Shown here piece after piece: positions 42,649 through 64,000 of a stretch of DNA of 64,000 nt. Origin of the DNA: Bacteroidales bacterium (GTDB taxonomy: Bacteria; Bacteroidota; Bacteroidia; Bacteroidales; WCHB1-69); NCBI GenBank assembly GCA_024686335.1, contig JAILCI010000040.1, positions 6,585-70,584 of the forward strand. The letters run 5' to 3'. The position numbers and the translations under genes are program-made. Below the pieces are notes generated by a model. It did not search any database and was not told the origin of the DNA. It saw only the letters and a list, made by a program, of their open reading frames with translations. Position 1 is the first letter of the stretch. Each line of letters opens with the position of its first letter.

Positions 42649-45600
42649 GCGTTATTTTTGATGTAATTATTGAGTTTCTCCAGCCAGTGTAGGGCCGCTT
42701 TGACAGTCGGGATGTTATGCACCACGAAAACCAACCTGTGGTTAATCTCCTTGAGCTGAATAAGCGGATGGTTATGCTGCATGAAGGCAAGGACAAGTCC
42801 AAACTCATCAGACTGGAAATAGTTAGAGTTGGATTGACCGGCAAAATGGCCCAAGAAGGTCTTATTTTTCAGCACCACCTTCTCGAAATGGAGATCAGAA
42901 GCCAGCATACGCAACGGAACCGTCAGCATTAGCTCCTCGGTCTTGGCTGGCATTGGTCCGAAGATATCCACAACCTTTTTACGGAATTCATCTAGCTTTT
43001 CAAGATCCTGGATAGCCTCCAACTCTTTATACAAGCTCATGCGTTCAGAGACGCTAACAACGTAATCGGTGGGGAACATTGCTTCAATATCGGTTTCCAA
43101 CAGGCACTCGCGACGGAGAATTGCAGTATTGTCGGCAGGCTTATCTTCGCCCAAGTCTTCGTAATCCTCATCTCGCATCTCCTGAATGGCCTCATTGAGA
43201 ATCTTCTGATACATCTCGTAGCCCATTTCGTTGATGAAACCGCTTTGGTCAGCTCCAAGGATATCGCCAGCGCCACGGATATCGAGGTCGCGGAGGGCAA
43301 TCTGGATTCCACTGCCGATATCGGAGAACTCCTCGATAGCTTGGAGACGCTTCCTGGCGTTGCTGTTGAGAAACTCGTAGGGTTGGGTGAAGAGATAGCA
43401 GTAGGCTTTCTGATTGTTACGGCCTACCCTACCACGTAATTGGTGAAGCACGTTGAGGGCAAAGTTTTGGGCATCATTGACAATCATCGTATTGGCATTG
43501 ACGATGTCAAGGCCAGACTCGACGATGGTGGTGGATATGAGGATATCGTAACGACCCTCGATAAAATCGGTCATAATCTTCTCCAGTTCATCACCTTCCA
43601 TCTGGCCGTGGCCTACTGCGACACGCGCAGAAGGGCACAGGCGTTGCACGAGACCGGCCAATTGCGGCAAGTCCTGAATCTTGTTATGCACAAAGAAGAC
43701 CTGACCATGACGGTCCAACTCAAACTGAATAGCTTCCCGAAGGATATCCTCGTCAAAGACATGCACTTCGGTCTGGATTGGTTGACGGTTTGGCGGGGGC
43801 GTCGAGATGACTGAGATATCACGAGCGCCGATCAGAGAGAACTGCAGCGTACGCGGGATAGGCGTTGCCGACATGGTAAGGGTATCCACCGAGACGCGCA
43901 ACTCGCGCAGTTTCTCTTTGGCACCCACGCCAAACTTCTGCTCTTCATCGATAATAAGAAGACCTAAATCCTTAAAAATCACATCTTTGCTTAAAAGACG
44001 ATGAGTACCTATCAGTATATCTATCTTCCCTTCGGAGAGTTCCTTAAGGGTTGCTTTTATCTGCTTGGCCGTCTTGAAACGGTTCACATACTCCACGCGG
44101 CAAGGCATGTTAGCGAGACGGTCGCGGAAGGTGTTATAATGCTGTAGAGCCAACACAGTTGTCGGAACGAGGACTGCCACTTGCTTGCTGTCGCACACTG
44201 CCTTGAAGGCTGCGCGGATGGCAATCTCCGTCTTACCAAAACCCACATCACCGCATATCAGACGGTCCATTGGGCTGGTATTCTCCATATCCTTCTTAAC
44301 ATCGTCCAGCGTTTTGATCTGATCAGGAGTGTCCTCATAGATGAAGGAGGCCTCCAACTCTGTCTGCATATAGTTGTCGGGCGAGAAAGCGAAACCTTTT
44401 CGGGCCTTACGGGCAGAATAGAGCTTGATAAGGTCGATAGCCAACGCCTTGACTCTCTTTTTGGTACGCTCCTTGAGGCGCTCCCATGTTCCGGAGCCCA
44501 ACCGGTGCAACTTGGGAGGCGTACCTTCCTTGCCAACATACTTGCTGATCTTATGCAATGAATGAATGCTGACATAGAGAATATCTCCGCCATCATATGT
44601 CAATTTGATGACCTCCTGCTCTTTTCCATTAATCTCTGTCTTTTCCAGACCTTGATAAACACCGACACCGAAGTTGATATGTACCACATAATCACCAGGT
44701 TGCAAGTCATAAATCTCTTTCAGAGTAATGGACTCGCTCTTCTTGTAGCGATCACGAAGCACTACCCTCTCCTGTTTCTCCAGAAACTGGTGGTCAGTGT
44801 AGACTGCTACCTTACGAGCCTCGTCGCGAAAGCCCTCATGAATCTGGTAGCTCAACGGAGTGTATAGATGACGAAGGTCATACTCCGTGACATTCTGACG
44901 GTTGAACTTCTCCAGAAGGTCTTCCATAATCCGCTGGAGACGCTCCAACTGGGAAGCACTCTCTGAGAGAAAGACACTCTCGATACCCTGCTCATAGTTC
45001 TGCGTCCACTCGAGGAAGAGGTAGTCGAAACTGCGACTGAAATTATTCTGGGGTTTTATATCAAAATGCAATGCTAAATCTGTCACAGTCTTTGCAGGTG
45101 CATTGACAATACAGTGAGCATACTGCTTCCAAGTTTTCTCAAATAAAGGCTTATTGATGAAAAGCTCCTCAACAGGCAGTGTGAGAGGCGCATCAGGGTC
45201 TGTAGTCTTCGGGCGGGACTCCAATTCCTCACGAACATTCTTGCATAGAGCAGCAATCTGAGTCGCAATATCCTGAGGACTCGTCATCCAAAGCACTGTC
45301 GAGTCCGGCAGAAACTCAAAGAGGGAGACACGCTGCTCTTCGACGGCCATATTGCCGATATTGGGCATGATGTGAACCACCTCCTCATCTCTGATGGAGA
45401 GCTGAGTTTCAGGATTGAAATAGCGGATAGACTCTATCCTATCACCCTCTAATTCAATACGATACGGATACTCCTCCGAATAGGAGAAGATATCGAAAAT
45501 GCGACCACGCCACGCAAACTGGCCAGGCTCCACAACAAAATCCTCCTGCTGGTATTCGAGATCATAAAGATAATGTAAGAAATCATCCACGGGAATCTCC

Positions 45601-46097
45601 TGATCCTTTACTATTTTGAAGGTATTGTCGACAACATACTGCTGATTAACAATACGTTCCGCCAATGCTTCAGGGTACGTGATGACAACTTGCTGACCAT
45701 CACAATGGTGCGACAGCTTATTGATGAGCTCCGCACGCAACTTCACGTTAGCGTTATTGAGTTCATCGGACGTATGGGCACGCTTAAAGGAAGAGGGCAG
45801 ATAATGGACACGCTTGGAAGGCAAAGGTAGATCCTTGTCATCCAGGAGTTTCTCGATATCGTTATAGAGATATGCCGCCTCCTCCTTGGAAGCTGCGATG
45901 AAAAGATGAGGACGTGGAATCTTCTGGACGGCCAATGCCGCGAGAAGCGGATACGAGGATCCGACAAGTCCATCCATAGCAATAGCAGGGCGCGAGGAGT
46001 TGTCCTCGAGCCTTGACTTCAACTGAGCTGCCTCTTTTGCAAAGAGTTGCAACCGTAATTTGTCAACCGTCATCATAGAGGCGGCAAAAATACTCAA
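42645..46097 (-). CDS. mfd: Transcription-repair coupling factor
   Basis: The 1150-aa protein has a CarD-like domain, Walker A GDVGFGKTE, IIDEEQKFGV, TATPIPRT-like SATPIPRTL and QLRGRVGR. Confidence 0.95.
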   Translation of the reverse strand: MSIFAASMMTVDKLRLQLFAKEAAQLKSRLEDNSSRPAIAMDGLVGSSYPLLAALAVQKIPRPHLFIAASKEEAAYLYNDIEKLLDDKDLPLPSKRVHYLPSSFKRAHTSDELNNANVKLRAELINKLSHHCDGQQVVITYPEALAERIVNQQYVVDNTFKIVKDQEIPVDDFLHYLYDLEYQQEDFVVEPGQFAWRGRIFDIFSYSEEYPYRIELEGDRIESIRYFNPETQLSIRDEEVVHIMPNIGNMAVEEQRVSLFEFLPDSTVLWMTSPQDIATQIAALCKNVREELESRPKTTDPDAPLTLPVEELFINKPLFEKTWKQYAHCIVNAPAKTVTDLALHFDIKPQNNFSRSFDYLFLEWTQNYEQGIESVFLSESASQLERLQRIMEDLLEKFNRQNVTEYDLRHLYTPLSYQIHEGFRDEARKVAVYTDHQFLEKQERVVLRDRYKKSESITLKEIYDLQPGDYVVHINFGVGVYQGLEKTEINGKEQEVIKLTYDGGDILYVSIHSLHKISKYVGKEGTPPKLHRLGSGTWERLKERTKKRVKALAIDLIKLYSARKARKGFAFSPDNYMQTELEASFIYEDTPDQIKTLDDVKKDMENTSPMDRLICGDVGFGKTEIAIRAAFKAVCDSKQVAVLVPTTVLALQHYNTFRDRLANMPCRVEYVNRFKTAKQIKATLKELSEGKIDILIGTHRLLSKDVIFKDLGLLIIDEEQKFGVGAKEKLRELRVSVDTLTMSATPIPRTLQFSLIGARDISVISTPPPNRQPIQTEVHVFDEDILREAIQFELDRHGQVFFVHNKIQDLPQLAGLVQRLCPSARVAVGHGQMEGDELEKIMTDFIEGRYDILISTTIVESGLDIVNANTMIVNDAQNFALNVLHQLRGRVGRNNQKAYCYLFTQPYEFLNSNARKRLQAIEEFSDIGSGIQIALRDLDIRGAGDILGADQSGFINEMGYEMYQKILNEAIQEMRDEDYEDLGEDKPADNTAILRRECLLETDIEAMFPTDYVVSVSERMSLYKELEAIQDLEKLDEFRKKVVDIFGPMPAKTEELMLTVPLRMLASDLHFEKVVLKNKTFLGHFAGQSNSNYFQSDEFGLVLAFMQHNHPLIQLKEINHRLVFVVHNIPTVKAALHWLEKLNNYIKNNA

Positions 46098-46142
46098 TTT
46101 ATGGTCACATTCCGTTTATTGAAGATAAAAAAGCTTTTGTAG

Positions 46143-46263
46143 GGTCGATGCGTGCATCGACCATTAATAAGGAATTAATTTTTGTATTACTACCCCGCCC
46201 TACGGGCACCCCTTCTAAAATAGAAGGGGAATAAACTCCCTTGTGGCACGTTCGTGCCAAGGG
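46143..46263. repeat. Cluster of three GC-rich hairpins in an intergenic region
   Basis: The hairpins are GGTCGATGC-gt-GCATCGACC (46143-46162), CCCCTTCT-aaaat-AGAAGGGG (46209-46229) and CCCT..TGGCAC-gttc-GTGCCA.AGGG (46238-46263). Confidence 0.6.
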
Positions 46264-46349
46264 TAAATAAGGGGTAAAAGTATCTTGACACAAAATAATG
46301 GCGATGAGACGCTGTACGGCTACTTGTTGAGAAACTTTAGAAAACAGAC

Positions 46350-46388
46350 TGTGAAAAAGAAAGAGGGCGTTCCCACTGAACGCCCTCT
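46350..46388 (-). terminator. Rho-independent terminator of the lipoprotein gene 46416-46835
   Basis: AGAGGGCGTT-7 nt-AACGCCCTCT forms a 10-bp stem. On the minus strand it is followed by TTCTTTTTC. Confidence 0.7.
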
Positions 46389-46415
46389 ATTGCCTATTCT
46401 GATTAGAAAGTACTG

Positions 46416-46835
46416 TTATTTCTTTTGTTTGAAAGTAAGCGTGATATGGTCACTTCCGAACATCTCGGCATCTTCAGCATCCAATTCTATGGTCGTTGTG
46501 ATGGTTTTATTGTCTTTGTGGTAGGTGAAAGGCTGCTCGCCGTCGAACATACCATTTTCGCCGTCGAAAGTGTAGGTGCCGTCTTCATTTACCACTTCGC
46601 CGGGCATTGTTTGACCCATTACCGTTACGGTGGAGTTAACGGTCATACTGTAATTGATCTCGTCTTTGAAGTTGAGGGTCATGTCTACAGAAACGCTGCC
46701 CTCAGTACCTTCAATGGTGGAGGTATTAGAATAATTTGCCTGCCAGGTGGTGCCAGCCAGGTCGACATCCTTGCTGCAGCTTGTGAGAAGCATTACTAAG
46801 CAAGCTGCCAGTGTGAAGAAAATGTTTCTTTTCAT
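46416..46835 (-). CDS. Small lipoprotein (lipocalin-like size and pattern), hypothetical
   Basis: The lipobox is LLTSC. The 139-aa protein is beta-rich. Confidence 0.55.
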   Translation of the reverse strand: MKRNIFFTLAACLVMLLTSCSKDVDLAGTTWQANYSNTSTIEGTEGSVSVDMTLNFKDEINYSMTVNSTVTVMGQTMPGEVVNEDGTYTFDGENGMFDGEQPFTYHKDNKTITTTIELDAEDAEMFGSDHITLTFKQKK

Positions 46836-46947
46836 TTTTACTGTGTTTTAATTGCTTTAAATTGGGTTAATTGTTTTTTTATTAATATAATTCATTATTT
46901 AATCAAGTTTCTTTATCGCTGCCCTGAAAGGCGGGGCAGTAAGATAG

Positions 46948-49413
46948 CTATTGTCCCATGCCCATACCGCCACCAGCACCGCCGCCTTGGGCTTGTGCTT
47001 GGGAAGCCTCCAGTTCCATCTTGCCGAACTTGAAGGTGATACCGCCACGGATGCTACGACCCATCCAGCTGTTCCAGTTGCTGCTGTTGACAGAGTAATA
47101 GGGATTGTTGATCTCCGAACCCATAATATTCCAGTTGAAGATATCGGAGACACTGAGGTGGATAGAGATACGGCGTTTCCAGAACTCGGCACGCAGACCA
47201 GCATCAATACTGTAGCGCGGCTTGGTAGTGGTGAACATATCGACACTCTTGGAACGATAATTGGCAGATGCATTGATCTCCAAGAAATTCCATAATTTTG
47301 CCCAAAAGTTCAGACGGAAGCTGTAGCCCAAATTGTCTACAGTACGTGGCGTCACCTCATCGCGGAAGATAAATGAACTCTTGGAGTAGTAGACATTAGC
47401 ATAGAAACGGATATTCATGAAGGCCTTGAGACGGTACATCACATTGAACTCAGCACCGGTATTGAGCGACTTGCCAGCATTGACCGGCATGCTAAAGGAA
47501 ACAATTCGGTTAAAGAAGGGACTGTAGATAACATCCGACTGGCTGCTAATCTCGTTCTTGCTGTTTTTAAAATAGGCATTGATACCGACATTGCCGAACT
47601 TGTTGATATACTTTGTCCATCCAGCCTCTATAGAGTTGGTGAAAGTCTGCAGCAAATCGGGGTTGCCTCTGCTAAATCCATCCTCGCCATATTCAATATA
47701 TGTTGTCAACTGGTCGCCACTAGGATTAGAAACCCGGCGTGTGTAGCTGAGCTTGAAATTGTGCATGTTTTTGGTACGGTAACTCAAGTGAAGAGAGGGA
47801 TAGAGGCCAAAATAGCCCTTGTGTACATCGTCGGCGGGAGAGTTCTTAATCAACAAGTTGTAAAGTTCATATTCAGCACGCAGGCCGCCCTTGAGAGTAA
47901 AATTGCCAAAACGGTGCTGCAGTGTTGCATAAGCATCAAAGCTACCGTCACGGCTCAGAGCGTCTTGCGAGCGAATGGCATCCATGACATACTCATTGGT
48001 TGAAAATACCAACGTATCGAGTCTAGTAAAATCTTTTCCAGGATCATATGAACCCGAAACGCCCAACTCGATTTCACCATTTTTATGATAGGGAATCGTG
48101 TAGTCCAGAGAGGCAGAGAGACCTAACGAATTATATTTACTGTTTGATTTTTTATCTTTATCCAAGTAATCCAAATAGGTGTAATCTCTTACCGTTGATT
48201 GGTTACTATTCCGTCCCCAGGTCCAGAAGCTGACATCGGCGCTGATTTTGTGGCCCATGCTGTTGAATTTATGCTCATACCACATGCCGCCATATCCACC
48301 TCCGCCAAAACTGTTGCTCAGACTTGTCTCAGTAAAAGAACGATCACTCGGGTTTATAAGTTCAAAATAATAATTGTTAGCATTGCTGCTAGAATTACCG
48401 AAACCCGGATAGGTTCCAGCCCAGAAATAGAGACTGTTAGCGGTATCTGGAGTATAAGAACCATTAATGTAGAGACCGAAATCATGAGATTTAGAAAGAT
48501 AGCTACTAGTACTACGAGTATAAGTAGATATATCTCCCGAATCGGTAAACATGGTAGCAGAAGACTCACCATTGCCCTTGCTCACGCGGTAAGAGTAGTT
48601 GAGATAAGTACTGATGGAGAATTTCTCATTAGCATAGACGTATGAGATGAAGGGAGTGATGTCAGGAGTAGAAGAACCGCGCACGCCGAAGCTTAAGAAG
48701 CTGTTCTTCTTGATCTTGGAAGCGGTTACGATGTTGATGATGCCGCCACTGCCCTGGGCGCTGTAACGTGCCGACGGGTTGGTAATGACCTCAATCTTCT
48801 CGATGGTACCGGCAGGCATCTGCTGGATGAAGTTCTTGAGAGCATCGGCGTTCATATTGGAGGGTTTGTCGTTGATCCAAATCTCCACGGAGGAGACGCC
48901 GCGCAGGGTCACATTGCCCTCCACGTCCACCTCCACGCCAGGAGCATTCTGCAGAGCATCGGCCGCAGAGCCCGACTGTACAGTAGGATCTTCGGATACG
49001 TTGTAGAGTGTCTTCTCACCATCGATGAGGTAGACAGGCTTCTCGCCCACGATCTGCACCTCGTCAAGGTCGGTACTCGTCTTCTTCATCGGAATATCGC
49101 CCAAATTGACCTTCCTCTGCTCTCCACCGATAGTCACGGGCATACGAACCGTCTCGTAGCCAAGCAAGACAGCCGCCAGCACATACTCGCCGGCCGGGAT
49201 GCTGGAGATCTGGAAACCGCCTTGAGCATCTGACACGGCCTGACCCACCATCTTAGCAGTGGAGTCTGGGGTTTGCAAGACCACCGTGGCAAACATAACC
49301 TTCTCTTTGTTAAGGGTGTCTACCATCGTTCCGGTGACGGTGTAACGACTTTGGGCTGACATGAAGGATATCAGTCCAAGTAACAATACTAAAAGAAACA
49401 ATCTCTTCGTCAT
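46948..49413 (-). CDS. TonB-dependent-receptor-like outer-membrane beta-barrel protein with an N-terminal CarboxypepD_reg domain
   Basis: It has a signal peptide and a CarboxypepD_reg segment (VTGTMVD...DAQGGFQISSIPAGEYVL). The plug region reads DALQNAPGVEVD..VTLRG. A long beta-barrel follows, then a Gly-rich tail after ..ITFKFGK. Confidence 0.8.
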   Translation of the reverse strand: MTKRLFLLVLLLGLISFMSAQSRYTVTGTMVDTLNKEKVMFATVVLQTPDSTAKMVGQAVSDAQGGFQISSIPAGEYVLAAVLLGYETVRMPVTIGGEQRKVNLGDIPMKKTSTDLDEVQIVGEKPVYLIDGEKTLYNVSEDPTVQSGSAADALQNAPGVEVDVEGNVTLRGVSSVEIWINDKPSNMNADALKNFIQQMPAGTIEKIEVITNPSARYSAQGSGGIINIVTASKIKKNSFLSFGVRGSSTPDITPFISYVYANEKFSISTYLNYSYRVSKGNGESSATMFTDSGDISTYTRSTSSYLSKSHDFGLYINGSYTPDTANSLYFWAGTYPGFGNSSSNANNYYFELINPSDRSFTETSLSNSFGGGGYGGMWYEHKFNSMGHKISADVSFWTWGRNSNQSTVRDYTYLDYLDKDKKSNSKYNSLGLSASLDYTIPYHKNGEIELGVSGSYDPGKDFTRLDTLVFSTNEYVMDAIRSQDALSRDGSFDAYATLQHRFGNFTLKGGLRAEYELYNLLIKNSPADDVHKGYFGLYPSLHLSYRTKNMHNFKLSYTRRVSNPSGDQLTTYIEYGEDGFSRGNPDLLQTFTNSIEAGWTKYINKFGNVGINAYFKNSKNEISSQSDVIYSPFFNRIVSFSMPVNAGKSLNTGAEFNVMYRLKAFMNIRFYANVYYSKSSFIFRDEVTPRTVDNLGYSFRLNFWAKLWNFLEINASANYRSKSVDMFTTTKPRYSIDAGLRAEFWKRRISIHLSVSDIFNWNIMGSEINNPYYSVNSSNWNSWMGRSIRGGITFKFGKMELEASQAQAQGGGAGGGMGMGQ

Positions 49414-49586
49414 ATGTTTGATTTTTTATTATTTTTCAAAATGTAAGAAATTCATTAACAACACATTACCAACAAAAGTTCGGCTCATTTAAGGACCTAT
49501 ATAAAGAGGACGCAAAAATAGAAAAAAGTGCCAAAGAATTCACACAAAATGTAAATTCTGGACTATTAAATATTTCAAAGGACACT

Positions 49587-50675
49587 CTATCTAAGAATCT
49601 CCTGGACCGCCCCTAGTTTTGGGACAATCAGGTCGAAGCCGGACTCTTCACTGGCTTTGCGTTCGTTTTCGAGAGGCTCGTCCCAAGAGTGACGGGCCAG
49701 AGCATATTTAGAGTGGTGAACCGTGATGACCTGACGGGCGTGAAGGTCTTGTGCCTCCTTGCCCAACTCATCAGGCATCGTGTGGATGAGATTCCAGTGT
49801 TCATTGTACTGGCCATTCTCAAGAACAGCCAAGTCTATATCGGGAAATTTTTCTCCAATAGTCTTAAAATGAGGCCCATAACCACCATCACAGCCCAAGA
49901 AGAGACGACCAAATGGCGAGTCGAGCAAGAAAGAGGCCCAGAGGGTATTGTTTCTTCGCAAAGCACGACCAGAGAAGTGTTGAGACGGCAAGCAATGCCA
50001 TTTCCAACCCTCTTCCATTAAGAGCTCCTCGTCCCAGTCCAGTTCTGTAACCTTGCTCATATCCATGCCCCAGCGTTCCAAGTGTGCTCCAACACCCAAC
50101 GGACAGACTACGCGTTGCACACGGTCCTTCAGACGAAGGAATGTCTTATGGTCAAGATGATCGTAATGGTCGTGAGTGATAAGCAGACAGTCGATGATAT
50201 CCGGCATATCCTCCGGTTGGTACACATCGGTGCCAACAAAAGGCCTATTCACAAAGGCGAAGGGAGCAGCCACACAAAAGACAGGATCCACGAGGATTGT
50301 TTTGCCATGGAGTGAAAGAAGATATGATGAATGTCCAAACCAGATGTAATAGTTATGGTCTGGAGAGAGATGTTTCAGATCTTCATGGGCCATTGTCAAT
50401 GGTTGCGATGGCACGAGGGCTTTTTTCTTGCCAAAAAGCAGATGACGGATTAACTTCATCGATTGGTGAAATGAGATTCTCAGCTCCACATCGTTAAGGT
50501 TTCGGAAACAGCCCTTTCGGTAATTGGGCGACTTGCGAATGCGTTCCAGCCGTTTGCCTTTAGGGTGCCTGCCAAACTGCGGAAGATGTACAATGATTGG
50601 CGCGACAATCGCAAACACGACCATCAACACAATCAGTAACGCAATCAAAATTATGGTTATAGATCCAATAATCAT
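49587..50675 (-). CDS. Membrane-anchored MBL-fold metallo-hydrolase (NAPE-PLD-like)
   Basis: It has an N-terminal TM helix and an HxHxDH motif within LITHDHYDHLD. Confidence 0.75.
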   Translation of the reverse strand: MIIGSITIILIALLIVLMVVFAIVAPIIVHLPQFGRHPKGKRLERIRKSPNYRKGCFRNLNDVELRISFHQSMKLIRHLLFGKKKALVPSQPLTMAHEDLKHLSPDHNYYIWFGHSSYLLSLHGKTILVDPVFCVAAPFAFVNRPFVGTDVYQPEDMPDIIDCLLITHDHYDHLDHKTFLRLKDRVQRVVCPLGVGAHLERWGMDMSKVTELDWDEELLMEEGWKWHCLPSQHFSGRALRRNNTLWASFLLDSPFGRLFLGCDGGYGPHFKTIGEKFPDIDLAVLENGQYNEHWNLIHTMPDELGKEAQDLHARQVITVHHSKYALARHSWDEPLENERKASEESGFDLIVPKLGAVQEILR

Positions 50676-50791
50676 ATCAAATAATCATATTAAAACCATC
50701 CCTTCAACTCCTTCAAAAGTACTAATAGAAACGGAAAACTATGATTATTATTGTTTAAGAAAAAAGATTTTCATGCAATATAAAAAAGTGG

Positions 50792-52135
50792 TTATGCAAA
50801 ACCGTATTTCTTTCGATATTTGAGCAGCAGCGACAGGGAGAGCAGAAGAGCCATTCCTTCAGCAAAGATAATGGCAAACCAGATGCCATTAACCCCAAAG
50901 ATAGCAGGCAGAAGAAGAACTGCTAGGGTCTCGCAAATAAGTGTACGACTTGTGGCGATAACGGCTGACACCACACCGTTGTTAAGGGCTGTAAAGAAAG
51001 AGGAAGCATACATATTATATCCCGTCAGCAAAAAGGAGATACTGTATATACGCATAGCACGAATGGTCAGATTTAGGAGCTCTTCATCGTAGCTGACAAA
51101 GATAGCAGACAGAGGACGGGCCAACAACTCGGCGATTAGGAATAGTGAGATACCGAAGATAGTAATGAGGATATGGCTTTTGCCAAAAAGATTCTTAAGC
51201 TCATTCTTGTTGTCGGCACCATAATGGAAACTTACAATTGGAGCGGAGCCCATACTGTAACCGATGAAAATGGCCACGAAGATAAACGAGAGATACATGA
51301 TGACGCCGTAGGCAGCCACTCCATCTTCTCCGATGTATCTGATCAGCTGATAGTTATACAACATAGTAACCACTGTCGCCGAGATATTGGAGAAGAACTC
51401 GCTGATGCCGTTAAAACAGGACTGCTTCAAGGCCCAGCCGTCCCATTCGGGGCGGACGAGTTGCAACAGAGAACTGTTGGGGGACATGAAATAAATGAGT
51501 GGTATCAAACCGCCGACCATCTGCGAGATAGCGGTAGCCCAGGCTGCTCCCTTTAGTCCAAAGCCGAAGACGGCAATGAGCAGATAATCCAGCAGCATGT
51601 TCAGGAGTCCAGAAATGATCGTAACCAGCAGACCGAGACGCGGGCGCTCGGCGGTGACCAACAGAGATTGGAACATCATCTGCAGGATAAAGAATGGAAG
51701 AGCAACTAAGAGTATGCGGCCATAGATGACACAATCGTCCACCAGTGCCTCAGTGGCGCCCAGCCAGACGGTAATCTTGGGAAGAAGGAGTCCTCCCGCA
51801 ATGGCAAAGCAGAGACCTATCACTGCACCTGAGCAGACCAGTAAAGAGAAGACCTTCTGAGCCTTTTCCTGCCGTCCTTCACCTAACAGCTTACCTATCA
51901 ATGCGCTACCGCCCGAACCTAACATAAAGCCTATAATGGCCAAAAACATCAGAAAGGGGAAGATGAAGTTAAGCGCGGCAAATGGCATTTTACCTGCAAA
52001 ATTGGATACAAATATGCCGTCCACCACGCTATAGATAGATGTAAAAATCATCATCACCATAGATGGAATAGTGAAACGCAGTAGTTTTCCGAAGGTAAAA
52101 TGGTCAGAAAGTTGTATTGACGAACTCATATCCAA
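50792..52135 (-). CDS. MATE family efflux transporter
   Basis: The 447-aa protein has about 12 TM helices and a typical MATE N-terminus (LLRFTIPSMVMMIFTSIYSVVDGIFVS). Confidence 0.85.
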   Translation of the reverse strand: MDMSSSIQLSDHFTFGKLLRFTIPSMVMMIFTSIYSVVDGIFVSNFAGKMPFAALNFIFPFLMFLAIIGFMLGSGGSALIGKLLGEGRQEKAQKVFSLLVCSGAVIGLCFAIAGGLLLPKITVWLGATEALVDDCVIYGRILLVALPFFILQMMFQSLLVTAERPRLGLLVTIISGLLNMLLDYLLIAVFGFGLKGAAWATAISQMVGGLIPLIYFMSPNSSLLQLVRPEWDGWALKQSCFNGISEFFSNISATVVTMLYNYQLIRYIGEDGVAAYGVIMYLSFIFVAIFIGYSMGSAPIVSFHYGADNKNELKNLFGKSHILITIFGISLFLIAELLARPLSAIFVSYDEELLNLTIRAMRIYSISFLLTGYNMYASSFFTALNNGVVSAVIATSRTLICETLAVLLLPAIFGVNGIWFAIIFAEGMALLLSLSLLLKYRKKYGFA

Positions 52136-52641: not shown

Positions 52642-54228
52642 ATGACCAGGGCACGGGCTCGTAACATCATCACACGCATTGTCGCCATCCTGTTTGGGTG
52701 TACGGCAGCGTTCATTGTGGTCATCAATCTTCTCAAATCCAAATTTACGGGCGTACTGCTCTATTTTCACAAGCTAGAGACACAGCTCCCCCACCCCGTG
52801 CTGATGCTGATGGGAGTCGTTTTCATTGTCGGTTTGTATCTTTTGCTACGCCAAATTGGCGATAGGGAAAAAAGACGTCTTTCGGAACGCAGCACACTAC
52901 TTATCGCGGGTGGAATCTTCTTCGTTTTGCAGATGTTTTTCATCTACAACTACTGCTTTGAGAGTGGCTGGGATGTACAGATGGTGTTGGGGGCCGCACG
53001 AGAGATAGCACATGGCAACAGGGTTGTCGAAACGGGCTGGTATTTCAGCATGTATCCCAACAATCTGTTTATCACACAGATATTTGCCTTTATTCTGTGG
53101 ATCACTATTCCTTTGCACCTCGGCGCGCTCGACTATCTGGCCATCGTGACGGTACAGAGCATGCTCTGCGTGCTGACAGCCTGGATGCTGTATCAGATCA
53201 TCGTTGGGCAGACAAAGAAGCGTTGGCTCGCATGGTTCGGTTTGGCACTATATCTGTTACTCGTCGGCATCTCGCCCTGGACCTCCATTCCCTACTCTGA
53301 CGCTTGGGCTTTGTTTTTTCCCACGGCAGTTCTTTGGGTAGTGACCACCTCCGCATTTAAAGAGAAACCCTTCCTGCGTTGGTTCATAGCAGCAGCGTTA
53401 GCTTACATCGGTTACAAGATCAAGCCGCAGACCATCTTCGTGTTCGTCAGTGCTGTAGGTGTGGACATCATCAACATTCTGTTGGAGAAGGAAAGAAAGC
53501 CTTTGGGTAAGAGTTTCTGGCGGGGCAGTCCGCTCGGCGCCTGCGTGGGTTTAGTGTCAGCTTTTGTCTTCGCGTTAATTATCACGGCGACAGCGCCCAT
53601 TCGGCACAATTCTGACAGCAGGTTTGGCATTCCACATTACCTGATGATGGGCGTCAACCATATCAGTTTGGGCGGTTACTGCGACGATGACGTCATCTTC
53701 TCGCACCAGTACAAGACACCTCGCGAGCGCAACAAGGCAAATCTGCAGGAGACCGCACGACGCCTCCGATGGATGGGTCCTTCGGGATTCGGCTATCTTG
53801 CCTGCGAGAAGACACTCATCAACCATTTCGACGGCACCTTCAACTGGGGCAAGGAGGGCGAGTTCCTCAAGATTGTCTACCCAGAGCGCAACGGACATCT
53901 CTCGCCATTCCTGCGAAATCTGTATTACAACTTGACCATTCATGGAAAATACTATCCCTACTGGTGCACCGGCGCCACCGCCATCTGGCTCGGCGTACTG
54001 TTCTTGATGCTGTTTGCAGCTTTTGGCAAACAGGACCGTTTCAGCATCATCCTGATGCTTAGCATTTTATGCATAACGCTCTTTGAGACAATTTTCGAGG
54101 CACGGTCGAGGTATTTGTATGGGTATGTTCCATTGTATTTTTTGCTGGCGTTACAAGGGATCGGGAAGATAGAGATGGCAATCCAAAAGCTCAGGCAAAA
54201 AAAGCTGCATCATGCAAGCATGTTGTAG
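52642..54228 (+). CDS. Large polytopic membrane protein, possibly a GT-C-type (ArnT/PMT-like) glycosyltransferase
   Basis: The 528-aa protein has about 11-13 hydrophobic helices and one larger soluble loop near residues 330-430. The assignment is by topology only. Confidence 0.35.
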   Translation: MTRARARNIITRIVAILFGCTAAFIVVINLLKSKFTGVLLYFHKLETQLPHPVLMLMGVVFIVGLYLLLRQIGDREKRRLSERSTLLIAGGIFFVLQMFFIYNYCFESGWDVQMVLGAAREIAHGNRVVETGWYFSMYPNNLFITQIFAFILWITIPLHLGALDYLAIVTVQSMLCVLTAWMLYQIIVGQTKKRWLAWFGLALYLLLVGISPWTSIPYSDAWALFFPTAVLWVVTTSAFKEKPFLRWFIAAALAYIGYKIKPQTIFVFVSAVGVDIINILLEKERKPLGKSFWRGSPLGACVGLVSAFVFALIITATAPIRHNSDSRFGIPHYLMMGVNHISLGGYCDDDVIFSHQYKTPRERNKANLQETARRLRWMGPSGFGYLACEKTLINHFDGTFNWGKEGEFLKIVYPERNGHLSPFLRNLYYNLTIHGKYYPYWCTGATAIWLGVLFLMLFAAFGKQDRFSIILMLSILCITLFETIFEARSRYLYGYVPLYFLLALQGIGKIEMAIQKLRQKKLHHASML

Positions 54229-56235: not shown

Positions 56236-56529
56236 TTGACCGAAGAGATAAATGCTGAAAAAAAGAGTATCCCTCGGAGTATTCTGCTTCGAAAAATAGA
56301 AGAAATATTGACGAATAGCATCTATACAAAAGGAAAAGAAGAATCTTTAGCGGCACTCATCAAGTTATGCCGAGAGAAAGGACTCTTTTTATCTCATGAA
56401 AAAACGTCTGAAATCCTGAATAGCGTCATAGCACGTTACCGCGCACTCGCGCTCGACGACCCTAGCAAAGCAGCAGTGGAACGGATGGCTATCCAACTGC
56501 AATACTATGCAGCCGACACACCGAAATAG
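56236..56529 (+). CDS. Hypothetical small protein (TTG start), convergent with the TPR gene
   Basis: The 97-aa helical ORF has no recognisable motif. A 33-aa ATG ORF (56129-56230) just upstream in another frame may be part of the same, disrupted gene. Confidence 0.3.
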   Translation: MTEEINAEKKSIPRSILLRKIEEILTNSIYTKGKEESLAALIKLCREKGLFLSHEKTSEILNSVIARYRALALDDPSKAAVERMAIQLQYYAADTPK

Positions 56530-56534: not shown

Positions 56535-58595
56535 TCAATTCCCCTGTTTTTTATCTTCCATCTTCTTCTTAACGATCTCCACACTCTCTTTCAAGAACTT
56601 AACGTCGGGATGCTCCTCACCGTATGATACCTTTAGTATGTCCAGTGCTTTCTGAAAATACTCTAAAGCCTTTTGGTATTCTCCCTGATGATAACAGACA
56701 TTACCGATGTTGTTATAACCAGTTGCCACATTGGGGTGATTATCGCCATTTACGGATTTCCATATATCCAATGACTGCTGATAGTATTTCAATGCCTGCT
56801 CGTAATCCCCTTGGATTTTGTACACTCCGCCGATATTGTTGTAATTGGTAGCCACATCGGGATGATTCTCGCCATAGATCGACTTATAGATGACCAACTC
56901 TTTCTGGAAATAGTCCAAAGCCTGAAGATATTCACCCTGCAGATAGCATACCAGACCAATATTATTATAGCTAGTAGCTACATCGGGGTGGTTCTCTCCA
57001 TAAACGGACTTGCTGATTGAGAGGGTTTTCTGATAACAACTCATAGCTTGGGCAAACTCACCCTGAGAATAGTAAACCAGACCGATATTGTTGTAAAGTG
57101 TCGCCACTTCGGGATGCTCTTCGCCATATACTGACTTTCTGATATTCAGCGCCTTTTGATAGTATTCCATGGCTTGATCATATTCCCCTTGCGAGTAGTG
57201 CACCAATCCGATATTATTGTAACATATTGCCACATCGGGATGGTTTTCACCATACAAAGACCTACTGATATTCAAAGCACTCTGAAATTGTTCCAAAGCT
57301 TGTGAATATTCCCCTCGACTATAAAGAACGCCTCCAATATTATTGTGACTTGTTGCAACGTTAGGGTCAATCTCTCCGAATACAGACTTGCTAATTTCCA
57401 AGGATTTTTGATAATATTCCATAGCTTGGGTATACTCGCCCTGAGTTTTATACACAAAACCAATATTATTGTAGCATGTTGCCACATTTGGATGATTATC
57501 GCCATATAACGATTTCATAATCGTCAAAGATTTCTGATAAAAAGCCTTAGAATGTTCATACTCTCCTTGATTTTGGTAAACCCCAGCCAAATTGTTGTAT
57601 GCAGTTGCAACGGCTGGATGGGTCTCACCATTTTGCTTTATTGACTGACGCAGAGCCCGCTGATAAAAAGCAACGGCCTTACCCATATCGGCCATATAAT
57701 CATCAATAAAACTTCCAGCATCCAGTTGCCACTCCACATTGGTCGTGTCCAAACCTGCACGCAACTCCAGATAATAAGCTGCTGAATCATTCTGGAACTG
57801 TGCGGAATATTTCTCGAAATAGCTGTAGCATCGACGTGCGAGTTCCTCTTTATCAACGACATACATCTGCTCTGCCTTCTGCAGTCGTTCTCGCTGTTCT
57901 TGTAAAATTTGAGACTTCTGCTGATGTTCTAACACCTGGGCACGCAAATCTCCTCTTGAGCGGAGCAGAGAGTCTGCTTTCAACAACTCGCCATTCTCAA
58001 TAAAGAAAGAGACTTGGCGATAGAACTCGTCCAGCAGATCGTAGTCGAGACCAGCATAACGCTTGGCCATATCAGCAATGAGTCTCTCGTTATTCTCCTG
58101 TTCAGCATAGAGTGCTTGTAAAGCCTGGTGATAGGCATCTTCCGTCAACTTGTGGTTTTCAAGAAGCGAGTCTATCTCCCTTTCCCTTTGCTGAAGCTGG
58201 GCTTGCAGGTTTCTCCGCAGTTTCCGTTCAGATGCCAACTGGTCTGCGAGCTGCTTCTCCGGTGTTTCCATCGTAATCACCAATGGGGTTGCGGTACACG
58301 AATACTGTTTCTTCAACATATCAGGATCTGAGAGCACATAACCCTGTTTAAGCACATTATTAAGATAGAATTTACCTGCCGGAACTGTCAGTTTGAAATC
58401 GCCATTTGCATCACCCACGGTGGAGTGACCGCCAGATAATTGAATAGCCGCGCTGGGGATACGCTTGCCAGGAACCAATTGTCCTTTACTGTCAATTCTC
58501 CCCTTGGTCTTCACATAGCCTTTCTGGGTAGTCTGCGCAATGCCAAAGGTGGCAAAGAGCAGGATCAAAATAACACATATGTTCCATTTTTTCAT
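56535..58595 (-). CDS. Exported CarboxypepD_reg-like / coiled-coil / TPR (kinesin-light-chain-type, about 8 repeats) protein, paralog 1
   Basis: The signal peptide is MKKWNICVILILLFATFGIAQ. The beta-sandwich segment reads GYVKTKGRIDS...GDANGDFKLTVPAGKFYL. A long Gln/Glu/Arg-rich heptad region follows. After that come repeated 42-aa units of the form HPxVAxxYNNIGxVYxxQGEYxxAxxYYQKxLxI. Confidence 0.85.
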   Translation of the reverse strand: MKKWNICVILILLFATFGIAQTTQKGYVKTKGRIDSKGQLVPGKRIPSAAIQLSGGHSTVGDANGDFKLTVPAGKFYLNNVLKQGYVLSDPDMLKKQYSCTATPLVITMETPEKQLADQLASERKLRRNLQAQLQQREREIDSLLENHKLTEDAYHQALQALYAEQENNERLIADMAKRYAGLDYDLLDEFYRQVSFFIENGELLKADSLLRSRGDLRAQVLEHQQKSQILQEQRERLQKAEQMYVVDKEELARRCYSYFEKYSAQFQNDSAAYYLELRAGLDTTNVEWQLDAGSFIDDYMADMGKAVAFYQRALRQSIKQNGETHPAVATAYNNLAGVYQNQGEYEHSKAFYQKSLTIMKSLYGDNHPNVATCYNNIGFVYKTQGEYTQAMEYYQKSLEISKSVFGEIDPNVATSHNNIGGVLYSRGEYSQALEQFQSALNISRSLYGENHPDVAICYNNIGLVHYSQGEYDQAMEYYQKALNIRKSVYGEEHPEVATLYNNIGLVYYSQGEFAQAMSCYQKTLSISKSVYGENHPDVATSYNNIGLVCYLQGEYLQALDYFQKELVIYKSIYGENHPDVATNYNNIGGVYKIQGDYEQALKYYQQSLDIWKSVNGDNHPNVATGYNNIGNVCYHQGEYQKALEYFQKALDILKVSYGEEHPDVKFLKESVEIVKKKMEDKKQGN
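56570..57610 (-). repeat. About 8 tandem 126-bp coding repeats (TPR units) inside paralog 1
   Basis: GCCACATYGGGRTGRTT... recurs at about 56723, 56850, 56976, 57102 and so on. Confidence 0.8.
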
Positions 58596-60603: not shown

Positions 60604-61743
60604 TTACTGCTTAAAGATACAATAGCTATCCCCACATGGCATATATACGCTATCCTCATGCAGAGGAATAGAAGCGGAAAGCGGATAGGTCTTCCGCTGA
60701 GATTCCAACGGAACAGACAGTTTTACCAGTCCCGTTTCATCTGAGCGCACTGTTTTCCCATCTACGACAACATCTATATCTGAAAGAAAAGTCTCAGTCT
60801 GCGGATCATAAAGTCGAAAACGAATATCTCCGTATGTAGCAGGATCACGGGCAACATCAACTATTGTGTTCTTGGTTAAAATCAACGTTGTATCGGTAGG
60901 CAGAAAATCGCGACAGGTAACAGTAATCCGCACGGGGTGGTTCAAATATTTTGAGGGGATATTATGAAAAAGCACCTCCTCTTCCATTGCACGGAGTGTG
61001 TCCGTTTCCGTCTTGTTGTCAAGCGCCAAAGAGACCACGGCATCACGCAATACGGGCAAATTCTCATTATGAACCGAAATCTCGTTTACACGCAGAGAAA
61101 TATCCACAGGCTGGCTTTTTTGCCACACTGCAATCAAAGCTGCCAAGACTGCCACGCAGCCGACCGTCCATGCGACAGTCTTGCGGATAAGCAGACGACG
61201 ATGACGTTTCCATATTGTGTCAAACTCCACATCCAGCAATTTGGATATGAGCTGCACATAGGCTCGCTCACGGTTCATCAAAGGCAAGCGATAGATATTT
61301 TCATGTATATTAGCTCCAAGAATCTCCGGCAAGCCTAATGTTTTGACAACAGGGTTGAAGCATTCCGTGTCGGGGTTTCCGCTATTGGGTTCTCCATCCA
61401 CAATGAAAAAGTGGATATTCTGCGTTCGCCCAATCTGATGGAAAAAGGAGATCTCTCGCCCCACCCACTCCGACTTTGCGGAATGAGGTGAACAAATCAC
61501 AATAAGGTGCTGGGAAGCAAGCAGACGGTCTTGCAGTTCACGAGACAAACCTCCGGGCTGGATATCGGTAGGCGCAAAGAAAATAGGATTGATAGGAGTC
61601 CTCTCCCACCCTCGCTCGCTACACAACGTGGCTGGCATCCGGTAATGCTCCAGTTTCTTCTGCAACCGCTTACCCCACTTGATATCATGGGAGTTATAGC
61701 TGATAAAAGCAAAATATTTGTACTGCTGTTCCATAAGTCTCAT
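60604..61743 (-). CDS. TIR domain - single TM helix - beta-rich ectodomain protein
   Basis: The N-terminal YFAFISYNSHD strand motif is present. SEWVGREISFF places W93-x3-E97 in the position of the TIR catalytic Glu. The TM helix is TVAWTVGCVAVLAALIAVW (about residues 189-207). About 170 aa follow with Ig/CarboxypepD_reg-like strands (VVVDGKTVRSDETGLVKLSVP). The start overlaps the upstream stop as ATGA. Confidence 0.85.
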   Translation of the reverse strand: MRLMEQQYKYFAFISYNSHDIKWGKRLQKKLEHYRMPATLCSERGWERTPINPIFFAPTDIQPGGLSRELQDRLLASQHLIVICSPHSAKSEWVGREISFFHQIGRTQNIHFFIVDGEPNSGNPDTECFNPVVKTLGLPEILGANIHENIYRLPLMNRERAYVQLISKLLDVEFDTIWKRHRRLLIRKTVAWTVGCVAVLAALIAVWQKSQPVDISLRVNEISVHNENLPVLRDAVVSLALDNKTETDTLRAMEEEVLFHNIPSKYLNHPVRITVTCRDFLPTDTTLILTKNTIVDVARDPATYGDIRFRLYDPQTETFLSDIDVVVDGKTVRSDETGLVKLSVPLESQRKTYPLSASIPLHEDSVYMPCGDSYCIFKQ

Positions 61744-62039
61744 TTCTTCTTTCGAGATATTTCAAAACCATTCTTGACGATGAACTTCAACGTCTCAATG
61801 CTAGTATTGCGATCGAAGATTTTCTCCTCTTCAGACAACTGTTCGTATGGGACAAGGCAAGGATGCTTTTTTTCAACGTCATTGCGCTCAGGACCATAGG
61901 TCCAACCTTGAGCAAATCGTGTCGCCGACCAGACTTCATGCACATTCTCTGCCATCAGCTCGGCTAATTCCATCAATTCATCAGACAGTTTCACTTGAGA
62001 AGTGTCTACAGGACTAGGAGTATATCGATTTTCATTCAT
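61740..62039 (-). CDS. Stand-alone RyR (ryanodine-receptor repeat, PF02026-type) domain protein
   Basis: LAELMAENVHEVWSATRFAQGWTYGPERNDVEKKHPCLVPYEQLSEEEKIFDRNTS matches the RyR-domain consensus (HExWa...GW.yG....k.hP.lvpy.eLse.ek..dr). Its 99-aa size matches the small bacterial RyR proteins known from Bacteroides. Confidence 0.85.
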   Translation of the reverse strand: MNENRYTPSPVDTSQVKLSDELMELAELMAENVHEVWSATRFAQGWTYGPERNDVEKKHPCLVPYEQLSEEEKIFDRNTSIETLKFIVKNGFEISRKKK

Positions 62040-62052: not shown

Positions 62053-64000
62053 TTATTTCAATGTCATGCGCATTAACCACGGAATATATTTAACTATCTC
62101 GAAATCGAACTGTTGTAAATCGGGAGAGAGATCATTGAAAGGTCTTATTGCATGATGAACATATAACTTCTTATTAGCACTTAATTCTTTTTCAAATTGA
62201 GAATTACAATATAAATCCTCAGACGACTTCGGTTTCCGGAATCCCATGAGCAGTTTCTCCACGTTCCAACGATTATGCTCCACACGACCTAATATCTCTA
62301 TCTCCTTATCCGTAAAAGGATTTTGAAGGATGGATGTACCGTTCGCATCCGAGTCACGCATGGCCTGCAGAGTGTCCAATTTACAGACAATACTGGAAAC
62401 ACAATAGAGATTCGACCACTTTTTAGCGACTGGTAGATTCAACCAATATTTGTTTGCTGCAGACCAAAGATCCTTTTCAGGAATTCCCTCAAGTTCTTTT
62501 GGGCTTTTATAACGGAAAGTGTTATAATCTGCTGTTTCGTAAAGATAATTCAACAATTTAGCCTGATCTATGATTGTCTCGTCCAAGCTATAGGCCATAT
62601 CATCCATGCCAAATGGATAGATATTTGCATATCGATGACCCCGTTTTGCCACATGCAATTTACCTTCATCCACTTTAGCATAGTCATATTCCTTGTCATC
62701 AGCTTTCCTGAGATTGGTAACGAAATCATCGGCCCGATTTTGACGGATAAAGAGCGGTACTGCATTATCGTACACCTCATCAGGCATATTCATCCCCAAA
62801 ATGAAATTTTGCCGCTGGTCAGACATGGCGATAAATACGGAAAGATACTGGTTATCAGTATCTTCAGCCCATTCCTTAATCATGTTCTGGATGTTGGAAT
62901 CGAAGGCATCACCTTTTACAAACTCAAATTCAACGTCCAAAAAATCATTATTGGGTAGATCTTTTGAAACAAGTTTGTCAATTTTCTTCGGCAGGTATTC
63001 AGCATTCTCTCCTGACATATCGGAGAAAAAGTATGGCTGAACCTCAAAGAAATGTCGATTTCGGGTGGTAAAAACCAGCAATTGCTCATCTGCATGTTTG
63101 TCAATAAAGGTTATGCGCGTCCGCAAGGAATTGTCTCTATCAAAGTTCGGGAAATGGAGCAGATGAGCGGCTTCTACTGCTAAGGAAGTAGAGAAATTCG
63201 AAAGGCCAAAAAAGACCAAGTGTACCCTTTTAGTATCTTCATAGACGATTCCATCACCATACACAGAAGGATATGGGATCGCCTCTTTCGGACTGTTTTT
63301 CTCTTTGTAGGAACGACGTACGAGCACCTGGTTGGCCCAATCATCATAGAAATTGTAGGGTACAAATTCAATCCCCAGGCGACAGATCTGCGAGAAAATC
63401 TCTGTTGTTTTAAATGATGAATAGGTATCGAAATCCTCAAAAACGCAAGTTATTCGTCTTGGCTTCGTCTCTGAAGCAGTCTCAGTCAGATATGCATATA
63501 TACTATCCACACTCTCCACGTTAGCAGCATCATGTTCAGGGCGGGTACGGTTACCGACAACGAATATCTCCTTGGCTGCTTCGAGATGAATACTCTTGTA
63601 ACAATCCTTCATGGTGCGATGCCCGTAGGTTATGAAAATCTGGTCCATCTTACCGTGAGCCACAGAACGGAGCAATTTCTCGTTTACGACCTTAGCATCA
63701 AGAGCAGTGAGCAAGAGCACATCCGCTTTCGGATCTTTGGCAAACAATTCCGAAATAATGGAGGGCACCATGTCATCGTAGCCCATGATTATAAAGTGAC
63801 CGCTTTTGAGATATTGAAGCAAACCATTCCGATGAGCCTCCACCCGACGATTGATTGTGTTTGTGATAATACCTATGATAATACCATTAAAGATAATGAG
63901 ACCGAAGAGGTATGAAATTCCGCTTGCTATCAGCAGCCAGCCATGGGTTCCTTCGGCAAGATAGATACAACTATACGCACTGGAATCTATAAGCAGAAAT
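62053..64000 (-). CDS. Membrane protein with two Rossmann-like (RCK/TrkA-N-like) segments and a C-terminal RyR-like module; the 5' end is outside the window
   Basis: The frame is open upstream of the track's GTG at 63843, all the way to the window edge. My translation there is FLLIDSSAYSCIYLAEGTHGWLLIASGISYLFGLIIFNGIIIGIITNTINRRVEAHRNG, which contains a TM helix. The Rossmann-like segments are HFIIMGYDDMVPSIISEL and VHLVFFGLSNFSTSLAVEAAHLL. The C-terminus reads LGRVEHNRWNVEKLLMGF...HHAIRPFNDLSPDLQQFDFEIV. Confidence 0.7.
   Translation of the reverse strand, partial: FLLIDSSAYSCIYLAEGTHGWLLIASGISYLFGLIIFNGIIIGIITNTINRRVEAHRNGLLQYLKSGHFIIMGYDDMVPSIISELFAKDPKADVLLLTALDAKVVNEKLLRSVAHGKMDQIFITYGHRTMKDCYKSIHLEAAKEIFVVGNRTRPEHDAANVESVDSIYAYLTETASETKPRRITCVFEDFDTYSSFKTTEIFSQICRLGIEFVPYNFYDDWANQVLVRRSYKEKNSPKEAIPYPSVYGDGIVYEDTKRVHLVFFGLSNFSTSLAVEAAHLLHFPNFDRDNSLRTRITFIDKHADEQLLVFTTRNRHFFEVQPYFFSDMSGENAEYLPKKIDKLVSKDLPNNDFLDVEFEFVKGDAFDSNIQNMIKEWAEDTDNQYLSVFIAMSDQRQNFILGMNMPDEVYDNAVPLFIRQNRADDFVTNLRKADDKEYDYAKVDEGKLHVAKRGHRYANIYPFGMDDMAYSLDETIIDQAKLLNYLYETADYNTFRYKSPKELEGIPEKDLWSAANKYWLNLPVAKKWSNLYCVSSIVCKLDTLQAMRDSDANGTSILQNPFTDKEIEILGRVEHNRWNVEKLLMGFRKPKSSEDLYCNSQFEKELSANKKLYVHHAIRPFNDLSPDLQQFDFEIVKYIPWLMRMTLK

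Follow-up and report, generated by a model that had tools for sequence, protein, structure and literature searches.

A five-gene Bacteroidales operon with a putative transmembrane TIR protein, RyR-domain proteins and secreted TPR partners as a candidate variant of Thoeris-like signalling

To our knowledge, the bacterial TIR signalling systems described so far sense infection within the cell by means of soluble TIR proteins. The Glu of the SxWCxxEL-type motif is the NADase catalytic residue in SARM1, plant TIRs and bacterial TIRs. A systematic survey of TIR systems distinguishes 29 effector types, including an ion channel (Thoeris type X, signal unknown) and the membrane effectors of types V-VII, and the RyR domain was not found among them in its text or in the searched portion of its supplementary files (bioRxiv 10.64898/2025.12.03.692087). 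RyR-domain proteins of phages bind 2'cADPR, 3'cADPR and cyclic ADP-ribose (cADPR) at nanomolar affinity (PMC13232231; bioRxiv 10.64898/2026.06.04.730250). One of them, RyDEP, is a glycosidase that hydrolyses the cyclic signals of Thoeris TIRs and has a pocket made of H75/W78/H100/D117 (PMC13232231), and another, the RyR Tad sponge, has its ligand pocket at H129/W132/H154/D171 (bioRxiv 10.64898/2026.06.04.730250). Here we describe a TIR gene that stands in one operon with two RyR-domain genes and two TPR genes. It was found in a stretch of 64,000 nucleotides, referred to below as the window, from a Bacteroidales bacterium (assembly GCA_024686335.1, contig JAILCI010000040.1, positions 6,585 to 70,584 of the forward strand).

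The TIR gene is the third of five close-packed genes on the same strand, which are separated by 13 bp, an ATGA overlap, 38 bp and 44 bp. The first gene encodes a channel-like protein with a C-terminal RyR domain and the second a small RyR protein. The third encodes the TIR, a transmembrane (TM) helix and an ectodomain, and the last two encode secreted proteins with a CarbopepD_reg-like domain, a coiled coil and TPRs. The genes, with lengths in amino acids (aa), are:

62053..64000, minus strand: channel-like protein, open to the window edge and running past it, identical to the full-length protein P0271 (713 aa)
61740..62039, minus strand: stand-alone RyR-domain protein, 99 aa (Pfam RyR, 125 bits, E 1.4e-36), whose stop codon is overlapped by the TIR ATG at 61743 (ATGA)
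60604..61743, minus strand: TIR-TM-ectodomain protein, 379 aa
58640..60565, minus strand: secreted partner 1, 641 aa, with a signal peptide (AVA/Q), a CarbopepD_reg-like domain, a coiled coil and a KLC-type TPR array (domain and sequence analysis)
56535..58595, minus strand: secreted partner 2, 686 aa, a paralogue of partner 1 with the same domain plan

Literature searches returned no description of a channel-RyR-TIR-TPR cassette. Judged by its sequences, the five-gene cassette resembles Thoeris and appears to be a variant of TIR signalling not described before, in which the sensor is transmembrane and a RyR-domain channel is the candidate effector. As in Thoeris, a TIR with a catalytic Glu adjoins a candidate membrane effector carrying a domain class able to bind ADPR-derived nucleotides, and several TIR “sensor” genes can flank one effector. 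The pairing of a TIR with an ion-channel effector is already known from Thoeris type X. Filing the cassette under type X was considered and rejected, as the type X TIR has no detectable similarity to the window TIR. In contrast to Thoeris, the TIR is here a predicted single-pass membrane protein with a periplasmic ectodomain, a secreted TPR partner and a presumed RyR reader, and the locus has no defence-island context and only marginal PADLOC matches. Links between TIR and TPR proteins were reportedly predicted by Aravind and colleagues. A TIR gene is also paired with a TPR gene in BcTir/BcTpr of Bacillus cereus; the TPR proteins of the present cassette have cleavable signal peptides and its TIR protein is membrane-spanning, whereas the abstract on BcTir/BcTpr does not state their location (bioRxiv 10.1101/2023.05.26.542521).

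An initial annotation of the TIR gene, made from the sequence alone, proposed a cytoplasmic TIR_2-type domain with an intact catalytic Glu, tethered by a single TM helix to an extracytoplasmic beta-rich domain. The parts of the protein can be placed as follows, on the basis of database matches and an AlphaFold2 (AF2) model:

61234..61716, minus strand: cytoplasmic TIR domain, residues 10-170 (Pfam, PDB alignments, AF2, Foldseek)
61117..61224, minus strand: juxtamembrane helix (EFDxIWxRHxR) continuous with the TM helix, residues 174-209 (conservation, AF2)
61123-61179, minus strand: TM core, residues 189-207 (hydrophobicity)
60853..61110, minus strand: ectodomain beta-sandwich 1, residues 212-297 (AF2 and Foldseek; predicted local distance difference test score (pLDDT) of ~85-95)
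60610..60828, minus strand: ectodomain beta-sandwich 2, residues 306-378, CarbopepD_reg-like (hhalign to the partner domain)

The TIR assignment was confirmed by Pfam, in which residues 13-113 match TIR_2 (36.2 bits, cutoff 28) and ThsB_TIR (27.3 bits, cutoff 21.2), both above the curated cutoffs. W93 lies four residues upstream of E97, and the codon of E97 is 61453-61455, as annotated. Most homologues start at M4, as does the identical protein P0001 (376 aa) in its NCBI annotation, so E97 corresponds to E94 in NCBI numbering. A PDB search with the single sequence gave only marginal matches to Toll-like receptors (TLR2, TLR1, TLR10), with the TLR2 TIR as the best and the Glu of its “SEWCKYEL” aligned to E97. 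A family profile of 64 diverse relatives matched AtTIR, L6, ROQ1, RPP1, RUN1, SARM1/TIR-1, AbTIR, ThsB and TcpB, and its segment “AksewVgkEIeyF” was placed over “AASSWCLDELVTI” of AtTIR and “ADSKWCLMELAEI” of L6. From this alignment E97 occupies the catalytic Glu position, in agreement with the homology first proposed. The residue is invariant among 64 close homologues and at least 90% conserved among 64 diverse homologues with 28-67% identity. At position 93 the close homologues have W, and those distant sequences that were displayed have W, Y or F. The family thus has a WxxxE arrangement in which a Glu homologous to SARM1 E642 and L6 E135 follows an aromatic residue four positions upstream. 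Foldseek matched the N-terminal part of the model to the TIR domains of L6, RPPT and TLR15. By these sequence criteria the TIR domain is probably catalytically competent, and cleavage or cyclisation of NAD+ would be its reaction. The 90% clustered database holds 3550 homologues of the TIR protein, all from Bacteroidales/Prevotella-type sources, and a 50% clustered library holds 736 representatives at E<=1e-30.

A single hydrophobic helix, residues 189-207, follows the positively charged stretch KRHRRLLIRK. In the 64 diverse relatives, the median start of the TM helix is residue 190, and the number of Lys and Arg residues flanking it has a median of 6 on the N-terminal side and 1 on the C-terminal side, the N-terminal count being the higher in 60 of the 64. 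A signal-peptide-like N-terminal segment was seen in none of these 64. The single TM helix and the positive-inside orientation of the initial annotation therefore extend to the wider family. The AF2 model (mean pLDDT 82.6, with 85-95 in the ectodomain) consists of the TIR fold at residues 10-170, one continuous helix at 174-209 and beta-sandwiches at 212-297 and 306-378. Conserved positions include the motif L229-P230 and R299 in the region of the first sandwich and G338, P345 and Q349 in the second. The beta-rich C-terminal domain, for which an AlphaFold and Foldseek comparison had been proposed, is accordingly resolved into two confidently modelled beta-sandwiches.

Residues 206-379 have no match in Pfam or NCBIfam. 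Foldseek compared the ectodomain with tandem Ig/CnaB/transthyretin-like modules (B. anthracis TIE, Gram-positive pilins, the FimD usher and the regulatory domain of carboxypeptidase N). The likeness to CarboxypepD_reg is hence a generic Ig/CnaB/transthyretin one in Foldseek, and the homologous domain of the partners matches CarbopepD_reg_2 weakly (E 0.0059). In hhalign, beta-sandwich 2 aligns with the beta domain at the N-terminus of the TPR partners (probability 96%, E 1.4e-9). Because those proteins bear signal peptides, this homology provides an independent argument for a periplasmic ectodomain. The sequence and model evidence supports a single-pass, N-in membrane protein in which the TIR is cytoplasmic and the two beta-sandwiches are periplasmic. 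A homologue search with the ectodomain alone returned 5 fragments and was uninformative on other architectures. A disulfide between C277 and C370 was considered for the ectodomain and rejected, as these Cys residues are kept in close homologues and not in the wider family.

This topology resembles that of Toll-like receptors, which are single-pass proteins with the TIR inside and a ligand-facing ectodomain outside, as is predicted here. The analogy with these receptors, which the initial annotation had drawn, holds for topology and goes no further. The TIR is N-terminal in the window protein (type II orientation), the ectodomain consists of two beta-sandwiches rather than leucine-rich repeats, and the catalytic Glu is kept. 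Unlike the TIR of a Toll-like receptor, the window TIR probably acts as an enzyme, given this Glu. Relatives of the protein give further context for a receptor-like, outside-in reading, as in them the TIR-TM module continues into other large regions at the C-terminus, among them WD40 propellers, RHS-like repeats and unknown domains. A single TM helix is found in 37 of 38 such fusion relatives, nearly always near residue 180. In P0160 (820 aa) an nSTAND1 NTPase stands at the N-terminus of a full TIR-TM-ectodomain protein.

The small RyR protein is homologous to the “putative ryanodine receptor” of B. thetaiotaomicron (3NRT/6UAG) and to RyR Repeat12 in a PDB search, and it also matches phage PHROGs. 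Its residues H34/W37/H59/D76 have the same spacing as H75/W78/H100/D117 of RyDEP. Among 43 aligned small RyR proteins, H34, W37 and H59 are kept in 42 and D76 in all 43. On this alignment the small protein is a RyR domain (PF02026) with a predicted H/W/H/D ligand pocket. It shares with the phage anti-Thoeris proteins RyDEP and RyR Tad both the PF02026 domain and the spacing of H-x2-W, an H at +25 and a D at +42. It differs from them in being host-encoded and operonic with a TIR gene and a channel that ends in RyR. Because the RyR proteins of the cassette are host-encoded and lie in an operon with TIR and channel, they may have a role in sensing or regulation rather than in evasion. In another locus (L047:1217-2161) a 315-aa protein carries RyR at residues 222-310 behind an uncharacterised N-terminal extension of ~220 aa, and its gene lies directly upstream of a TIR-TM-ectodomain gene.

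The channel-like protein P0271 has two TM helices around a pore-helix-like loop; behind these come a region resembling a tandem RCK gating ring and, at the C-terminus, a divergent RyR domain. Its AF2 model has a pLDDT of 83.2 and a predicted template modelling score of 0.78. Foldseek matched the model best to GsuK (E 5e-8), followed by the CASTOR/DMI1 gating ring, Slo1/BK and MthK (E 5e-8 to 4e-5), and there is a weak sequence match to MthK where the inner helix meets the first RCK strand. As modelled, P0271 is a protein with a 2TM pore followed by RCK gating-ring domains. The protein has no match in Pfam, NCBIfam, PADLOC or PHROGs. The RCK-gated channels GsuK, MthK, Slo1/BK and CASTOR/DMI1 share the predicted plan of a 2TM pore and then tandem RCK. 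They differ from P0271, which has no TVGYG-type filter (T-V/I-G-Y/F-G) and no GxGxxG motif in RCK1 and carries an additional RyR domain at its C-terminus. The consensus of the pore loop in the channel family is LLPIYLLIDxNALNxLYxGGxVHGW; as this loop is without a K+ filter, the protein is filed as “channel-like”.

The last ~95 residues of P0271 carry H-x2-W, H and D in this order, and the residues H640, W643, H680 and D697 are invariant in 61 sequences. A profile of 30 pooled channel C-termini from several subfamilies matched only RyR repeats in the PDB (6uhi 1.9e-10, RyR3 Repeat12 3e-6, B. thetaiotaomicron 3nrt 5e-5), and 24 of the 30 C-termini match Pfam RyR individually. From these comparisons the channel C-terminus is a RyR domain (PF02026) with a predicted H/W/H/D pocket. 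RyR domains on a cation channel (predicted here) are also found in eukaryotic ryanodine receptors and oomycete PKD-RyR channels, and the tandem repeats of the related protein P0375 resemble Repeat12. Pore and gating architecture are unrelated, with an RCK channel here and a six-TM pore in the eukaryotic proteins, and any evolutionary link between them would concern the RyR domain only.

Two further families were seen near such cassettes. A second divergent membrane family of ~800-835 aa, with weak matches to TrkA_N and RyR (E 0.008), lies between the TIR and RyR genes at L037:9314-11818 and in ~15 other loci; its C-terminus has the RyR signature with just a 3-residue insertion. A protein with an MscS-like mechanosensitive-channel beta-domain, whose family occurs in 9 loci, is encoded near the cassette at L082:3392-4576, directly upstream of a short channel-like open reading frame (ORF).

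The two secreted partners are 59% identical overall and closer to each other in the N-terminal module than in the TPR array. Signal peptides with an A/Q cleavage context are found in 76 of 83 partners. The N-terminal segment was also considered as a membrane anchor or a lipoprotein signal and rejected as such, since there is no Cys lipobox and the conserved A/Q context favours a signal peptidase I site. Between paralogous partners of the same locus, the N-terminal module has a median identity of 62% and the TPR array one of 34%, the module being the more similar part in 22 of 24 pairs. This pattern fits a conserved docking module combined with a variable ligand-binding array. A chimera, P0235, joins residues 156-334 of the TIR protein to residues 120 onward of a partner; it may be a recombinant or an assembly artefact, and as such could support a contact between the two only weakly. 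The window also encodes a TonB-dependent receptor (46948-49413, minus strand) whose N-terminal CarbopepD_reg-like domain is of the same class as those of the TIR ectodomain and the TPR partners.

The cassette was followed through 80 loci, each from a species-representative genome of rumen or gut Bacteroidales, Prevotella, Muribaculaceae or Alloprevotella. These loci were found by close-homologue alignment and the sample is hence biased to relatives with 57-75% identity to the query. A partner gene with signal peptide, beta domain, coiled coil and TPRs lies within 300 bp of the TIR gene in 66 of the 80 and within 8 kb in 75. The number of partner copies per locus is 1-5, with divergent TPR arrays, and 29 of the 80 loci have 2-5 copies. 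Channel-like genes occur within 8 kb of the TIR gene in 51 of the 80 loci, or in 30 of the 41 loci with full flanks. The small RyR gene is found within this distance in 35 loci, in 33 of them together with the channel. Taken as one class, RyR-domain genes lie within 8 kb in 53/80 loci. All linked genes are on the strand of the TIR gene in 76 loci, while the gene order of the cassette varies. Among the 80 loci, no further gene family recurs comparably near the TIR gene. One metagenome-assembled genome, RGIG8246, holds two complete channel-RyR-TIR-partner cassettes on different contigs (L013 and L017). A contig of a Logan assembly (L007), found by an exact match to P0271, has the same five genes; upstream of them, beyond ~800 bp of intergenic DNA, lies a divergent Amidase_2 gene.

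Look-ups from channel homologues led back to TIR genes. In another Bacteroidales genome (L088:1-10680, also L089), RyR and channel genes lie amid five TIR genes, namely two TIR-WD40, one TIR-STAND (NPHP3_N/WHD) and two small TIRs, an array that looks like a layout of many sensors and one effector. Elsewhere (L090:112-6133, also L091), the natural channel-RyR fusion P0375 (825 aa, two tandem RyR repeats) is flanked by three TIR genes, one of them with a TM helix. From these look-ups, the TIR genes to which RyR and channel are linked differ in architecture, and the membrane receptor-like form is the one present in the window. Linkage to RyR-domain genes is strong in the 80 loci and in the reciprocal look-ups, and the contact residues of gcADPR-binding phage RyR domains are conserved in the sequences of the cassette; a Thoeris-type pairing of a TIR with a nucleotide-binding effector may therefore be present. 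The receptor-like, outside-in reading of the initial annotation gains strength from the secreted, diversifying TPR partner next to the TIR gene, and it is strengthened further by RyR-domain proteins, including the channel-like one, as plausible readers of a TIR product.

A mechanism can be proposed from these elements. The N-terminal module of the partners (CarbopepD_reg-like domain and coiled coil) would dock on the homologous ectodomain of the TIR protein, and the diversified TPR arrays would bind a periplasmic cue such as phage components, injected toxins or an envelope-derived ligand. Clustering of the receptor upon ligand binding would bring TIR domains into contact and start the cleavage or cyclisation of NAD+. 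The product, probably a cADPR-type nucleotide, would then be read by the RyR domains of the channel C-terminus and of the small protein. The small RyR protein may join the RyR domain of the channel in a Repeat12-like pair, or it may act as a buffer or hydrolase of the signal. Its near-obligate presence beside a channel gene and the tandem repeats of P0375 suggest the pairing. The output would be opening of the channel, with ion flux or depolarisation of the membrane. We place the whole mechanism, in which periplasmic TPR sensors activate the membrane TIR and a NAD-derived nucleotide read by RyR domains gates the channel, at about even odds.

A bolder interpretation sees in the cassette an outside-in pathway of the innate-immune type, in which a transmembrane TIR enzyme makes a cADPR-type messenger and RyR domains of the Repeat12 type gate a cation channel. 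This reading is tentative, and its probability is put at roughly 35%. If correct, it would describe a prokaryotic counterpart, possibly an antecedent, of signalling from cADPR to the ryanodine receptor, made of components that animals also came to use. No earlier TIR system would then have sensed the periplasm rather than the cytoplasm. A membrane TIR with secreted, diversifying TPR co-receptors would show that envelope events can be coupled to NAD-derived second messengers in bacteria. A host operon with a TIR and a RyR-domain channel could serve as a tractable test system for RyR as a channel-gating receptor of the cADPR family. Given its size and its frequent occurrence in Bacteroidales of rumen and gut, the family may matter for phage-host and interbacterial dynamics there.

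Several observations weigh against the proposed mechanism. About one-third of the loci have no RyR or channel gene within 8 kb. The pore loop lacks the K+ selectivity filter. The C-terminus of the window's own channel is too divergent to match Pfam RyR alone, and hhalign of window-type channel C-termini with small RyR proteins was weak (E 0.004, probability 8%), a pairwise signal that was resolved by pooling the divergent channel subfamilies. The proposed contact between ectodomain and TPR proteins is drawn from adjacency, homology and the possibly artefactual chimera P0235. In the window and in the P0058 loci, the cassette is flanked by housekeeping genes (among them S20 and SpoU) and not by a defence island. 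PADLOC gave a marginal ThsB match (E 0.0016) for the TIR protein and none for the channel or the RyR protein.

Because of the housekeeping flanks and the lack of PADLOC system matches, a physiological role has to be weighed first among the alternatives. With the same biochemistry, the TPR proteins would report the state of the envelope or of nutrients and the TIR nucleotide would tune the RCK channel in ion homeostasis. Such a role would suit the synteny conserved within species and the very wide occurrence of the cassette in rumen and gut Bacteroidales (205 species genomes matched, 3550 proteins). RCK channels are, moreover, classic homeostatic devices, and GsuK binds NAD and ADP. It accords less well with partner genes that are multiplied and diversified to 1-5 per locus, and with channel and RyR genes that elsewhere stand in TIR-WD40 and TIR-STAND arrays typical of conflict systems. 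The fusion of the relative P0160 to an nSTAND1 NTPase and the RyR-domain anti-Thoeris proteins carried by phages also speak against it, and we consider the physiological role rather unlikely. The diversified sensors, the TIR-STAND and TIR-WD40 neighbours and the phage RyR counter-proteins point to immunity or conflict, and such a role is favoured over housekeeping signalling.

The TIR could also work as a self-contained effector of suicide or arrest, in which periplasmic sensing leads to NAD+ depletion by the TIR with no messenger, and the RyR and channel genes are separate neighbours. NAD+ depletion is common among bacterial TIRs, and the loci without nearby RyR or channel genes almost always have a TPR partner. 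This explanation leaves unaccounted for the RyR-domain genes of the other loci, the translational coupling of RyR and TIR in the window and the reciprocal linkage of channel homologues to TIR genes. The RyR ligand-contact residues, invariant in the channel and kept in at least 42 of 43 small RyR proteins, also speak against it, and we regard a self-contained effector as unlikely. A non-catalytic TIR that, like animal TLR adaptors, serves as the scaffold of a membrane complex, here with the TPR proteins, could be suggested by the TIR domains of TLR2, TLR1 and TLR10 as the closest single-sequence PDB matches. It is very improbable in view of a Glu that persists, with its aromatic residue four positions upstream, across members with 28-67% identity, and of a family profile that matches enzymatically active plant, SARM1 and bacterial TIRs. 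Inverted topology or secretion, with the TIR outside the cell and acting on the NAD+ of a host or competitor as TcpB/BtpA-type bacterial TIR proteins act on host cells, is the least probable of all, given the positive charges before the TM helix, the missing signal peptide, the homology of the C-terminal beta domain to a domain of signal-peptide proteins and RyR partners without an export signal.

Beyond the cassette, the window flank at 35278-52135 encodes YidC, a histidine kinase, malic enzyme, a THUMP-like protein, Mfd/TRCF, a metallo-beta-lactamase-fold protein and a MATE transporter, and no mobile-element or defence genes were seen in it. A 97-aa ORF at 56236-56529 on the plus strand has no family match and converges on the second TPR gene, ending 6 bp from its stop. 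Another ORF on the plus strand, of 528 aa at 52642-54228, has no Pfam match at E<=1e-5, and the identical gene of L007 is labelled PF27792 (CHIM_prot).

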